The notes beneath the pieces were generated by a model that saw only the letters and a list, made by a program, of their open reading frames with translations, ran no database searches and had not been told where the DNA came from. Of a stretch of 17,497 bases of DNA, positions 3,280 through 17,497 are shown piece after piece. Position numbers and translations under genes: made by a program. Numbering within the stretch: the first letter of the stretch is position 1; each line of letters opens with the position of its first letter. Source of the DNA: Gloeobacterales cyanobacterium (GTDB lineage Bacteria; Cyanobacteriota; Cyanobacteriia; Gloeobacterales; PMM-0068); NCBI GenBank assembly GCA_038245785.1, contig JBBRSB010000047.1, positions 1-17,497 on the forward strand, read 5' to 3'.

Positions 3280-3327
3280 CGGCCCCTGAGTTCAGCCTGA
3301 GCTGCGCCGAAGGGCTCTGCCGAAGGG
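3280..3327 (+). repeat. Two nested 24-nt small dispersed repeats
   Basis: The outer cggcccctgag|ctctgccgaaggg is split by the inner ttcagcctgagctgcgccgaaggg (3291-3314). Both fit CCTGAGC-N3-GCCGAAGGG, as does 16373-16396. Confidence 0.8.
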
Positions 3328-13527: not shown

Positions 13528-13543
13528 TCTATCGAAAGATAGA
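13528..13543. promoter_or_regulatory. Perfect palindromic operator TCTATC-N4-GATAGA upstream of the GT-glf gene
   Basis: TCTATC gaaa GATAGA, about 50 bp upstream of ATG 13477. Related copies are at 8901 and 16021. Confidence 0.55.
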
Positions 13544-13549
13544 TATAAC

Positions 13550-14880
13550 CAGGGTAAGCGCAAGAAAAAGATTCTCAAAATGTGCTAAGCCTTCGTGGCT
13601 GCTGCCAATATTTCGAGCATATAATTCGTACTCATTGCTGCCCGTTTAGTCTTTTGTCTAAGGCTACGTTTGGTCGAAGTTTCTTGATTGAGCACACCCA
13701 CCGCTAAATGTCTCAGCAAAGAGAAATTCTCAGGCCCGTGTCCGGTGCGAATTCGAGAAGCATCTTCCCGAAAGGTCACATCTAAAACCCAGTGCAGTTG
13801 ATTCTCAATCCCCCAGTGAGCGCGAATGGCTCGACCGATAGAAGCTGCATTGCACGCCATAGAACTCAGGTAAAACATCACCTTACGAGTAGTCTTGTTC
13901 CACAACCGCCTTACCCTCGATACCATTACGAGGGTTTTAAGTCCTGCCCATTGGGATATTTGATGCAACGTACCCATCTGGCTCAGGGGAACATTCCAGA
14001 CCTTACGAGTTTCTCGACGATGATGGCCTGTCTCAACTCGCGTATCATACTGGTGCTCAATCCCCTCAAAGTTTTGACGTTGGGCATCTTCAAACCAAAT
14101 TCTGACTTCATTCCATAGGGTGGGATGGTTCGCTTTCAGGCACAGGACATAATCTGCGCCCTTATCCACAATTTGCTGCGCGATCTCGGTTTGAGTGCCC
14201 ATTGCATCAATGCTGATAATACATCCACTGATATCCAGTAATTTAAGTAAGGCGGGAATCGCTTTGATTTCGTTAGTTTTATTCTCAACTTTCACTTGGC
14301 CTAGCATGAGACGATTTTGACTGGCTCAAGCGCTGACCATATGTAAAACGGACTGATTAGTTTTATGGTCATAGGAGCCTTTAAGGGTCTTCCCGTCGAT
14401 GGATATTACTTGGGCACCCGTCGCTTCGACAACCTGCTTAACCCAACCCAGAAAGCACTGCTGTAATTGCTCTGGATGGATGCGCTCAAAGACTCTTCTA
14501 TAGGTCTCTGCGTGGGGGATGCCATGTTTTAAGTTGAGAAACGTTCCGAGCCATGAATGGTGACTTTCTCCATACAGTTCGATGTCTTCCCAGCTACTTG
14601 CTCCAGCAATTGTCGCGAGGATGGCGATGAGCATGATGCTCAGAAACTCGTGCTCCACACCCTTCTTCTTTCGCGGGTCTTGAAGGGTCTTAAATTGCGA
14701 TATCCACCGTGATTGAATCGTCTTAGCGTCTATAGCAGGACGTATCTTTCGCGCTATTGCTGCTTGGCGGATTGATTGGGAGCGCTTTTCAAAACCTTTA
14801 AATATCTGGACCATACCCACGGAAATGACTGCATTTCCTGCCTAGCACATAATGACCCCGATTTTCTTGCGCTTACCCTG
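13550..14880 (-). mobile_element. ISAs1-family insertion sequence, 1331 bp
   Basis: Perfect 19-bp IRs cagggtaagcgcaagaaaa (13550-13568 / 14862-14880). 10-bp target duplication tagatataac (13540-13549) / tagatatagc (14881-14890) with one mismatch. Confidence 0.95.
13585..14820 (-). pseudogene. ISAs1 transposase with an in-frame nonsense codon
   Basis: Motifs DPR, IDGKTLKGS, IDAMGTQ, HWGIENQLHWVLDVTFRED. The two track ORFs are in the same frame, separated by TGA at 14328-14326 where VSAW (TGG) is expected. Confidence 0.92.
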
Positions 14881-14967
14881 TAGATATAGCTCATTGGAGC
14901 TTATTAGTTTTAATGCAAAATATAAGAGTGGAGATTAATTGGAATTAATCTGTGTGGTAGGCAATGG

Positions 14968-15903
14968 TTATCCCAAAAAAGCTGGATTTGTAGCTGTACT
15001 GTCGTTTTGTGTGGTTGTTTTGTACCGTTCATACTTCCCTTCCATAGCAGCAGTATGGGTACGGGCTAGTAAAGAGGATACTTGCTCTTGATTCATCGGT
15101 TCAAAAGTACGCACTGCTTCAAAAGCTTGTTCCAATAAGTCCATGCTGTCAATTCCCGTAATAACTACAGAGGTTGGCAAATTCATCGAATAATGTAAAC
15201 ATTCGATTGCATTTACTATATTACTTCTGAGAATGTAAGATTCCCCAAGCGACTTCATCCCTAATACGCCAATTTGTTTTTCGACCAGCTTCGGTAAAAC
15301 CAGTTTTTCAAAACTCCTGAAATGTGCGTCCATTACATTGAGGGGCATCTGCACTGCATCAAAGTGAACATTATTTTCTTCAGCAGCCTCCAACATCCTT
15401 AAATGAATGTGAGGATGTTTGTGACCAGTAAAGCCCATGTAACGAATTTTGCCCGCTTGTAGTGCCTCAAGCATCGCTTCCATAGCTCCTCCTGGCGAAA
15501 AAATACGATCAGGGTCTTCATAGCGCAGAATTTCATGGTGTTGCAGCAGATCAATGTGATCTACCTGTAAGTCTTTTAAGGATTCATCAATTTGCTGTTT
15601 GGCCGCCGCTTTAGTACGACCATCAATTTTTGTCATTAAGAAAACTTTTTGCCGGTAATTATTTTTGAGTGCTGCACCCATCCAACGGTGGCTACGTCCA
15701 TTATGGTAATCCCAAGAGTTATCCATAAAAGTAATACCTCGATCAACAGCAGAGCGAATTAACTGTATACTCTCTTGTTCTGTTTTTATAGCTCCAATAT
15801 GATAGCCACCTAACCCAATAACCGAAACCTGCTCTCCCGTTTGCCCTAAGGTACGATAGATCATTTCGCCGATTAACAAATCCTTTTTTGTTGCTGCCAT
15901 CAT
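14968..15903 (-). CDS. Aldo/keto reductase
   Basis: YRTLGQTGEQVSVIGLGG, FMDNSWDY, VFLMTK, SLKDLQVDHIDLLQHH, GKIRYMGFTGH. Confidence 0.92.
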   Translation of the reverse strand: MMAATKKDLLIGEMIYRTLGQTGEQVSVIGLGGYHIGAIKTEQESIQLIRSAVDRGITFMDNSWDYHNGRSHRWMGAALKNNYRQKVFLMTKIDGRTKAAAKQQIDESLKDLQVDHIDLLQHHEILRYEDPDRIFSPGGAMEAMLEALQAGKIRYMGFTGHKHPHIHLRMLEAAEENNVHFDAVQMPLNVMDAHFRSFEKLVLPKLVEKQIGVLGMKSLGESYILRSNIVNAIECLHYSMNLPTSVVITGIDSMDLLEQAFEAVRTFEPMNQEQVSSLLARTHTAAMEGKYERYKTTTQNDSTATNPAFLG

Positions 15904-16020
15904 GCTTACTCCCGTAGGATGGTGTTACTCGACGATTAGTTTTCTTCCTTTGACTACTGCCAAAGACTCACTAGAGCCTTTAGGCACTAATTATGATAAT
16001 GCTAACTTTTGTTAAAAAAA

Positions 16021-16036
16021 CCTATCTCAGGATATA
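16021..16036. promoter_or_regulatory. Degenerate TCTATC-N4-GATAGA operator upstream of the AKR gene
   Basis: CCTATC tcag GATATA (10/12). Minus-strand -10-like TATCAT (15998-15993) or CATAAT (15995-15990) lies 22-25 nt away. Confidence 0.45.
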
Positions 16037-16062
16037 GTTCTCTTTAGTAGTAATTATGCAAC

Positions 16063-16167
16063 TGACCTTGCCTCGAAAAAGTGGACATTCCCGAAGAGTC
16101 GATAACCGAGGAGAATGTTCAGATGACGAAAAAACCACGCAGGATATTTACTCCTGAGCAAAAAGCT
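16063..16167 (+). mobile_element. Stub of a second IS3-family element (left IR plus 15 codons of orfA)
   Basis: IS3-like IR tgaccttgcctcgaaaaagtggaca, then GAGGAG, then ATG 16123 MTKKPRRIFTPEQKA, cut exactly at the IS1 IR. Confidence 0.7.
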
Positions 16168-16250
16168 GGAGGTTGCACAATAGGGGTATGAAATGCCCAA
16201 AATGTCAGTCCCAGAACCTGTCAAAAAACGGCCACCGACGTGGTAAGCAA

Positions 16251-16316
16251 CCCTTCGGCTAGGCTCTCGGCTTCTCGGCTGCGCCTGCGGGACACGCCTG
16301 CCGCACACAGGGACCA
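16251..16316 (-). repeat. 66-nt nested mini-insertion (24-mer containing a 21-mer containing a 21-mer)
   Basis: Removing it restores GKQ|RYLC in frame. The parse is given in the findings. Confidence 0.8.
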
Positions 16317-16372
16317 CGCTATCTTTGTAAATACTGCAGCCATCAGTTTCCTGAGTCTTATCAAACTCAAGG

Positions 16373-16396
16373 TGGCCCCTGAGCCTAGCCGAAGGG
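16373..16396 (+). repeat. 24-nt small dispersed repeat
   Basis: tggcccctgagcctagccgaaggg. Removing it restores CAA GGT TAT CCA (QGYP). Confidence 0.85.
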
Positions 16397-16576
16397 TTAT
16401 CCAGATGCAGTCAAGAAGAACGCCTTACTTTCTACCTCAATGGCATGGGGTTTCGTGGTATTGAACGATCGACTGGTGTCTACCACAACACCGTCATCAA
16501 TTGGGTTAAGCAAGCTGCTTTTACCTTGCCAGACCCACCAGAAATCAAGGAAATTCCGACAGTCGCTCAGCTTGAT

Positions 16577-16599
16577 GTAGGCGTCAGCCGTGCGTAGCG
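16577..16599. repeat. About 20-nt GC-rich mini-insertion in the IS1 D-E-L-Q-T-F motif
   Basis: 23 nt (gtaggcgtcagccgtgcgtagcg) lie between GAT(D) and CTT CAG ACT TTT (LQTF), where a single Glu codon is expected. Confidence 0.65.
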
Positions 16600-17032
16600 C
16601 TTCAGACTTTTATCCAGAGAAAAAAACAAGATCTGGATCTGACGGCAGTTAACCAGGCTGTTTCAGGAATTCTTGCCTGGGTGACTGGTGACCGGAGTTC
16701 CCAGACATTCGAGCCTTTATGGCGCATCGTTGAAAACTGGAAGTGTGGCTGGCATGTCACCGATGGGTAGGTGGTCTACAAATCGTTCATCGAGGCAAAA
16801 GAGAACCTAATCAGCAAGACAACCATGACGAGAGTAGAAGGAGAAAATGGTCGACTGCGTCACTATCTTGCCCGTCTGCATCGTCAGGGTTTGTGTTATT
16901 CAAAGACAAAAGAGATGTTGAATTTATCGATACGGCTGTTACAGCACTACCTAAAGTCGGGAATTGTAGCAATTCCACCATAATCATCCTCCTTTTGTGC
17001 AACCTCCAAGATTTAGTTCCACAACACTTCAT

Positions 17033-17497
17033 TCAAAAAGGCAGCACTTTGAAGTCAAAGAGGCGCTCCATCATCCATACGGAAGCGACCAGGGCAATAG
17101 AAACCAGAAAGAGCAATAAGCGACTCTACCCAGCGGGAAGGCAACTGGATTACTCCTAAGGTAGCCAAGCTCAGGGTAATGGAGTGTGCAATGGTGAACG
17201 CGGTAACGACCTTGAGCACATTCCCAAAGACAGAACGGATCTCCAGAACAGGTTTCCATCTTCCATCTCTGCGCTCTAGTACAGCGGGTAGCAAAAGAGT
17301 GAGCAGAAAGAGAATATGGTCAAAGCCAATCCAAATATGCCAAACGCCTTCCCTCACAAATTCTAGGAACTGTTGCACTGGGTTGACAGCTACTAATTCC
17401 AAAGACTGATTCGCTTGGGCCGGACTAAATATTGCGGTACGGGTTAGTCCCTGGGATTCCAGGCGCAAGAGTCCCCGATGCTGAGGGTCAAGATCAA
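17033..17497 (-). pseudogene. 3' part of a HupE/UreJ-family membrane protein with an internal out-of-frame deletion
   Basis: EGVWHIWIGFDHILFLLTLLLP, TAFTIAHSITLSLA, PSRWVESLIALS. The frame is open to the window edge. A family-like C-terminus, LVSIALVASVWMMERLFDFKVLPF*, follows directly in another frame (stop 17035-17033). Confidence 0.75.

Follow-up and report, generated by a model that had tools for sequence, protein, structure and literature searches.

Nested hairpin units of 21 to 25 nucleotides in a dead IS1 element extend small-dispersed-repeat-like elements beyond Nostocaceae

Introduction

Small dispersed repeats (SDRs) are units of about 21-27 nt that occur as several families per genome and whose small folds are conserved despite sequence change. 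They are said to have been described in Nostocaceae by Elhai et al. in 2008 (Genome Res 18:1484). Passages in the SDR literature (PMC4390886, PMC5861425, PMC13756078, PMC2884548, PMC3116915) present SDR5 as a unit of 21 nt that inserts precisely in HIP1, between its bases 3 and 4, and the passage on it in a 2026 paper calls its function unknown.

Several other systems of short hairpins bear comparison. Ssn is a GIY-YIG nuclease that, according to sections of its description (PMC11893778), cuts single-stranded DNA beside its own flanking SRM/NTS hairpins; what these sections show is cutting, not repeat mobility. Among the papers from 2024 onwards that were listed for a link between GIY-YIG genes and hairpin mobile elements, this one alone was relevant. 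REP, BIME and REPIN-RAYT repeats appear in excerpts of three papers (PMC3116915, PMC8266576, PMC3733652) as short imperfect, noncoding hairpins that form clusters and inverted doublets and for which mobilisation in trans has been proposed. MITEs, in an excerpt of the last of these, are 70-300 bp long and carry terminal inverted repeats (PMC3733652).

Here we describe units from a Gloeobacterales cyanobacterium. The window, that is the whole stretch of 17,497 nt that was analysed, is contig C47 of a 5.0-Mb genome (G000) assembled in 255 contigs. In their behaviour the units resemble the SDRs of Nostocaceae, with which they share size, dispersal, multiple copies, precise insertion between two bases of a short family-specific target, empty alleles and a small conserved secondary structure (the stem of the 21-mer and the outer stem of the 24-mer core); the general features agree, the named SDR families having been compared by description only. 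They are SDR-like units outside Nostocaceae, and as such a well-documented extension of this kind of element.

The nest and its IS1 host

The features of the window that bear on the argument are listed below; a vertical bar within a motif marks the insertion junction, F21 and F24 denote the 21-nt and 24-nt units, and X2 is a sequencing run from another study.

16063..16167, plus strand: left-end remnant of a multicopy element, the target of the IS1, with matches in C1, C4, C5 and genome G001
16168..17007, plus strand: dead IS1-family element with terminal inverted repeats, insA from 16188 and a broken insB
16251..16316, plus strand: whole 66-nt nest, from recursive excision and from the 66-nt skip in the empty allele of run X2
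16251-16265 plus 16308-16316, plus strand: the two pieces of the F24 that hosts the nest, inserted in insA of the IS1 at an A|C step
16266..16307 (pieces 16266-16273 and 16295-16307), plus strand: outer F21, inserted in F24 at GCT|CAG
16274..16294, plus strand: inner F21, which entered the outer F21 in its loop, at TT|C
16373..16396, minus strand: second, inverted F24, from recursive excision and missing from the X2 allele
16833..16834, minus strand: site that is empty here and holds a separate F24 in the X2 allele, with the target CTA|C on the unit's strand, which fits the target rule
3280..3327, minus strand: second nest, an F24 holding the 24-nt sibling F24b (3291-3314), which has a different tail, at AG|CTC

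A sequence-only reading of this DNA had parsed the 66-nt insert as a 24-mer that holds a 21-mer that in turn holds another, and had found an inverted 24-mer nearby. The coordinates of its pieces and its identities of 22/24 and 18/21 could be reproduced, and excision of 16251-16316 and 16373-16396 does open the insA frame. The nested parse stands; the register of the 21-mers had to be moved, the true units lying one base further right. In the corrected parse the host F24 of the nest has 0 mismatches to the 24-mer consensus and is, by inspection, 23/24 identical to the inverted copy at 16373-16396. Both F24s of the IS1 have the loop TAG, which occurs in no other of 28 distinct copies. The outer F21 shows 1 mismatch to its consensus once the inner unit is excised, and the host position that it uses, GCT|CAG, recurs at C43:391 and C64:3786, while the end of the inner F21, GCGGGACA, is common to copies at C21:25162 and C64:5340.

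The element was assigned to IS1 from a Pfam match to DDE_Tnp_IS1, a weak match to the InsA zinc ribbon and matches to plasmid IS1 elements. Each of its F24s brings an in-frame stop into insA, and thus either alone would kill InsA, though the length of the unit is a multiple of three. A second or intact copy of this IS1 was not found in this genome; the searches of G001 and G002 returned fragments only, and the best match among plasmids was 63%. The remnant at 16063..16167, which is also present in the X2 contig, appears by our reading of its short frame to be an IS3-like element. The window further holds an IS3-type element at 865-2018 and, roughly 1.3 kb left of the IS1, an ISAs1-like element at 13532-14898 that has 59-nt inverted repeats and a DDE transposase in two frames.

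Filled and empty alleles

That assembly error or chance explains the nest is hardly credible. The genome is a fragmented metagenome assembly, in which repeats may be misjoined, but a single 990-nt contig of the probable source run covers 16072-17061 with 0 differences, and the independent run X2 shows an empty allele as well as a separate insertion; these two observations refute the artefact reading, and the reversed-genome controls, with 1 match at the thresholds used, speak against chance. The X2 contig (depth 24) carries the same IS1 at about 94% identity. Its allele skips exactly 66 nt, with the joint from 16249 to 16316, and is also without 24 nt at 16371-16395 (split 22+2 by the aligner), which correspond to the inverted F24. 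The alignment with an IS1 uninterrupted at these sites that the sequence-only reading had called for is thereby supplied, and the X2 allele is free of both the nest and the inverted 24-mer. Taken together with the F24 that X2 alone holds at 16833..16834, the comparison of filled and empty sites implies that this IS1 took three independent insertions after the alleles split.

Self-alignment of the genome yielded further filled and empty pairs among paralogs, namely C27 and C45 against C23, C21 against C31, C31 against C21, C28 against C6, C43 and C88 against C31, and C31 and C43 against C88. They cover the 24-mer, a variant of the 21-mer and a 25-nt sibling, and show a target duplication in no case; one pair differs by 23 instead of 24 bases. 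The earlier suggestion that these are very small mobile dispersed repeats is borne out by the empty alleles and by the copies found across the genome.

Unit families and their targets

The units were catalogued by recursive excision across G000, with the reversed genome as control. From genome-wide contexts the 21-mer has the consensus STCG-SS-TNC-SS-CTGCCRGACA and is inserted at T|C; its register is fixed by variants that start with G and keep the host's C on the right, and in this corrected register the hosts return to their own consensus. The 24-mer, whose register is ambiguous by one C, has the consensus CCCY-TCG-RC-NNN-GC-TC-RGGG-RCCR. There were 38 matches to the 21-mer in G000, 35 of which were kept (at most 2 mismatches, or after excision); the three single matches with 3 mismatches, a level at which the control had 6, were dropped before counting, and the reversed genome gave 1 match at 2 mismatches. 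The pattern of the 24-mer found 49 matches, against 1 in the reversed genome (3 mismatches), and three sibling families had 5, 3 and 3 matches. The units thus recur genome-wide, as 35 21-mers and 42 units of the 24-mer type, and this mobile set amounts to 77 units of 21-25 nt in 63 loci; 24-mer matches without the RCC tail were left out of it, which makes it a set selected on the tail.

Two siblings insert in another manner. A 16-nt sibling replaces exactly one T of the host in four host types, with a net gain of 15 bases, at sites that include C35:42698, C5:33039 and C2:213743 of G000 and the loci L215, L228 and L214, and a 25/26-nt sibling replaces one base in two host types. This loss of one target base is easier to explain by copying into a gap than by ligation at a single nick.

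Length and ends are fixed within each family, which makes no target duplication and follows a target rule of 2-4 bases that ends at C. For the 21-mer the target is HT|CR: base -1 is T in 33/33 distinct flanks, although the search pattern did not demand it, -2 is never G, +1 is C in 29/33 and +2 is a purine in 31/33. The target of the 24-mer is mostly CWN|C, with C at +1 in 31/33 and at -3 in 19/33, and in the metagenome copies -3 is C in 34/52.

Nesting, which the sequence-only reading had proposed to be preferential, is indeed far in excess. A recognisable host hairpin holds 13 of the 35 21-mers, against 562 of 240,946 eligible sites (0.23%), and 11 of the 42 units of the 24-mer type, against 514 of 354,464 sites (0.15%); the excess is about 160-fold over expectation, and the counts, which miss some hosts interrupted twice, are underestimates. 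Eight of the nested 24-mer-type units lie in mini-units and three in an IS200 end hairpin. The single GGCT/AGCC centre that had been suggested as the point of entry gave way to several fixed junctions, most of them N|C steps: TT|CG and GCT|CAG are where the 21-mer goes into the 24-mer core, units of the 24-mer type go into it mostly at G|CTC, and both types enter the 21-mer after its variable loop base, at TN|C. Nesting can be deep, as in a five-level nest of 21- and 24-nt units within a repeat arm at C49:15312-15401 of G000. Since the units nest at fixed positions, sequence or structure must direct their insertion, which has to act in trans, as the earlier reading had inferred.

Copies that lie close together also seem to be more alike. 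Among pairs of F24 within 1.5 kb of each other, 2/7 differ by at most one base, against 8/371 distant pairs (p=0.012); the numbers are thin but point to local copying. Within an IS110 gene lies an inverted pair whose loop is almost private, recurring in one degenerate copy on the same contig.

Insertion sites include genes of IS1, IS200, IS481, IS256, IS5-type and IS110 elements and of TnpB, sites near toxin-antitoxin genes and, in frame, a few host genes. In G001 a tRNA-Lys(CTT) gene (L027:794-888) holds a 21-mer between the variable loop and the T arm. Multicopy DNA, which makes up 7.7% of the genome, accommodates 23 of the 63 loci, an excess that may in large part reflect tolerance of neutral DNA; a targeted defence against IS elements is for this reason not claimed. 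The corresponding figure for transposase genes alone, 20 of the 63 loci in 0.7% of the genome, is circular, as its queries were derived from the sites. We also considered, and rejected, that the units keep one orientation with respect to host transcripts: both orientations occur in IS1, IS110, IS256 and IS200 genes.

Hairpin structure

Both units keep a small hairpin by compensatory change, and fixed positions in related hairpins are preferred for insertion. The three-pair stem of the 21-mer is 95% paired, with 8 double changes among 21 distinct copies, a level reached by 0 of 500 shuffles, a control that is inflated by related sequences among the 21-mers. Its loop is TNC in 33 of 34 copies, which is GNA on the other strand, and in single-stranded DNA such GNA loops have an unusual stability. 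Across families, the outer stem of the 24-mer core, with its four pairs, covaries. Energy folding favoured neither DNA nor RNA, nor either strand.

Distribution

Of 61 genomes, three, which belong to a single genus, have the exact pattern of the 21-mer, with 18 copies in G000, 7 in G001 and 12 in G002. Among GTDB representatives 40 loci were found: two cyanobacterial assemblies, one of them titled Gloeobacterales, account for 27, another cyanobacterial bin for 2 contig ends with identical flanks, and the other 11 are singletons. The singletons, which lie outside cyanobacteria, were taken as chance matches because in most of them the stem is unpaired or the flanks look like coding sequence.

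Among 301 genomes of the phylum, 2 have the full 24-mer and 106 its 16-base core. The full 24-mer is also present at 53 metagenome loci, on contigs of 35-72% GC, where 12 contexts are tandem, 7 are nested in a related repeat and 34 are of other kinds. At some of these loci it lies in frame within genes that we take, from their translations, to be guaA-like, rplO-like and transposase-like; L175, L178 and L169 are the loci of the guaA-like and rplO-like genes, which belong to other bacteria. Viral contigs had no locus of the 21-mer and one of the 24-mer, and among plasmids nothing matched the 24-mer with its flanks.

A GIY-YIG nuclease gene beside the core

One gene of the genome stands out by the repeats around it.

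G000 C16:63270-63880 (L018): frameshifted UPF0213-like GIY-YIG gene between hairpin repeats, with the 24-mer core on both sides

A four-level nest lies just downstream of this gene and a multi-part nest upstream, and the closest solved relatives of its protein (PDB chains) are UPF0213 proteins. Homologs were found in 10 of the 301 genomes, G000 included, and at all 11 of their loci the 24-mer core stands beside the gene. At least 50 copies of the core are present in 5 of the 10 genomes with the gene, against 3 of the 291 without it; the p value of this link (7e-7) is overstated, as related genomes are not independent. One metagenome F24 lies within the repeat upstream of a GIY-YIG gene that is 60% identical.

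What is associated with the gene is the extragenic repeat core rather than the full mobile 24-mer, found in two of the 301 genomes, and the association is uneven. Three genomes with 65-157 copies of the core are without a repeat-flanked copy of the gene; in the gene-bearing genomes G113, G213 and G222 the pattern with the three-base loop has 0-2 matches, and two of these genomes carry a two-base-loop form; and within the short flanking stretches screened, the gene is near the core at only 1 of 56 loci. No close homolog was found in the other 13 genomes of the order, including G001 and G002 with their exact 21-mers. For the 21-mer no candidate mobiliser was found. GIY-YIG enzymes cut DNA and are not known to join it.

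Comparison with described systems

Identity with SDR5, with the published SRM, with RAYT-linked REPs and with MITEs was considered in turn and rejected on the features of each. SDR5 enters HIP1, whereas the targets here are HT|CR and CWN|C, and no split HIP1 was seen among the flanks listed; in contrast to the SDRs of Nostocaceae, the 24-mer also ranges over metagenome contigs of widely differing GC. Like Ssn, the system includes a small single-domain GIY-YIG gene flanked by a hairpin, and the abundance of the repeat tracks the gene. The published SRM pattern, in contrast, matches 0 of the 11 loci, no F21 or F24 is among the 18 genome-wide matches to it that were listed, and the protein here is nearest to UPF0213; neither UPF0213 nor cd10456 occurs in the main text of the Ssn paper (PMC11893778).

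With the REP, BIME and REPIN-RAYT systems the units have in common their short imperfect, noncoding hairpins, their clusters and inverted doublets and a proposed mobilisation in trans; in contrast to those systems, single arms rather than doublets are inserted here, coding sequence, a tRNA gene and the units themselves are entered, and no RAYT gene is flanked by the core among the six Y1 matches of G000, all of which were examined. As regards the 5' GTAG/GTGG tag and the CT or CA cleavage of REP/REPIN-RAYT, F24 reads GTGG on the minus strand only with the target G, F21 is without it, and the junctions are N|C. IS200-type elements leave no target duplication, a trait that the units share with them, as they share with MITEs and IS200/IS605 derivatives in general a non-autonomous nature and movement in trans. 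They differ from MITEs by their 21-25 nt and by having neither terminal inverted repeats nor target duplications. The filled and empty pairs, which show no target-site duplication, separate them from Cas1-type integration as well. A linked reverse transcriptase, as in retro-elements of the group II intron type, was not found: none of the 11 reverse transcriptase genes of G000 has a unit core within 1.5 kb.

How the units may move

The mechanism that fits best is hairpin-directed insertion of single-stranded DNA. Our tentative reading, quite possible though short of assured, is that these SDR-type units of 21-25 nt are mobile but non-autonomous hairpins, moved in this way. The units would act as single-stranded DNA. 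A trans-acting protein would bind the apical hairpin common to the units, which reads TCGRC-NNN-GC on one strand and GC-GNA-GY on the other; on the strand of the GNA loop it would nick neighbouring DNA 3' of a G, and a copy of the unit would then be joined or copied into this nick, probably with the help of host polymerase and ligase. A protein that loads on existing hairpins would place new copies inside or near old ones and so could give rise to nests, clusters and local inverted pairs. For the 24-mer the best, albeit unproven, candidate for the mobiliser is the UPF0213-like GIY-YIG nuclease, to judge from gene neighbourhood and repeat counts; its gene would be a transient visitor, which in G000 is dead.

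Movement may also need no dedicated enzyme. Replication or repair could switch template between single-stranded hairpins with 1-2 bases of microhomology and copy the unit into a stalled or nicked site, a contender that we consider unlikely while taking it seriously. It would account for the failure to find a candidate gene present in all three genomes with the 21-mer: in G001 reverse transcriptase, Cas1, DUF559 and a repeat-flanked GIY-YIG gene were not found, and only a Y1 fragment was. Near-identical inverted neighbours and tandem arrays, such as the 12 of 53 metagenome contexts, are typical of the process, and the 16- and 26-nt siblings appear to replace one target base. Yet these gene absences rest on G001, which is fragmented and 94% complete, and the units keep the same length and ends at many unrelated coding targets, which have no more than C or TC in common with them. 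Each family, moreover, has its own target rule, and the families are patchy (3/61 and 2/301) across genomes that share the host machinery.

The RNA-templated insertion raised by the sequence-only reading did not hold up well, and we regard it as distinctly unlikely. In this scheme a minihelix would be cut from a transcript, and a group II-type reverse transcriptase, primed by one base pair, would copy it into a nick in the DNA; F24 is like the acceptor end of a tRNA, with a 4-bp stem and a 3' RCCA/RCCG tail, and RNase P could trim the exact left boundary. The genome has 11 reverse transcriptase genes, core arms with the RCCA tail are followed by C in 15/16, the outer stem covaries, and RNase P is described, in the part of a paper that deals with it, as cleaving small substrates in an RCCA-dependent manner (PMC12710915). 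The 21-mer and the F24b and F25 siblings have no RCCA tail. Reverse transcriptase matches numbered three in G002 and none in G001, those of G000 stand apart from the core, as noted above, both orientations occur within single genes, and Rfam gave no match in 15900-17100. Nine of the 11 matches of G000 lie on contigs of 1.8-3.5 kb (C89, C112, C116, C131, C134, C137, C140, C145), which is what several multicopy group II introns would be expected to give.

That an HUH (Y1) transposase, like those of IS200 or RAYT, peels the hairpin off as a tiny single-stranded circle and pastes it without duplication seems to us improbable. The lack of target duplication and the short target motifs are hallmarks of HUH enzymes, Y1 matches exist in all three genomes with the 21-mer, and the minus strand of F24 begins with GTGG if the target G is counted; TnpA-REP is reported, in the relevant part of one study, to cut and transfer strands in the vicinity of its hairpins and to have redirectable cleavage sites (PMC8266576). 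The Y1 genes of G000, on the other hand, look like IS200 elements with different end hairpins of their own and are targets of the units, not bounded by them, and 0 of the 6 Y1 matches is flanked by the unit core. DUF559 was tried as a mobiliser and dropped, its genes being flanked by a different repeat family and none being found in G001. The abundant palindromic repeats that flank DUF559 in G000 and G002 (L120-L128) in some cases carry inserts of 20-22 nt with a GNA-type loop.

Implications

A broader view, which we think rather unlikely, is that SDR-type units are single arms of nuclease-flanking hairpin repeats turned independent and form a cross-phylum class of 16-26 nt, moved by a hairpin-guided, UPF0213-like single-strand nuclease with target-primed copying or, as an RCCA minihelix trimmed by RNase P, by reverse transcription. 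On this view theirs would be a transposition chemistry without a transposase and without duplication, and sometimes with the loss of one target base; inverted REP-like doublets would be explained by local copying, and resident IS elements would be killed incidentally.

How DNA elements of 20 nt move is a question that has stood since 2008, and this locus provides a clean test case for it: one IS with empty and filled alleles, three independent insertion sites and junctions that are exact to the base, together with family-specific target rules, fixed positions in host hairpins and a candidate enzyme that has intact homologs (for example the 118-codon gene in L103 of genome G143). If the link to the nuclease holds, SDRs, REP-like repeats and small GIY-YIG nucleases would be joined in one mechanism; if it fails, the units still extend SDR-like elements beyond Nostocaceae.
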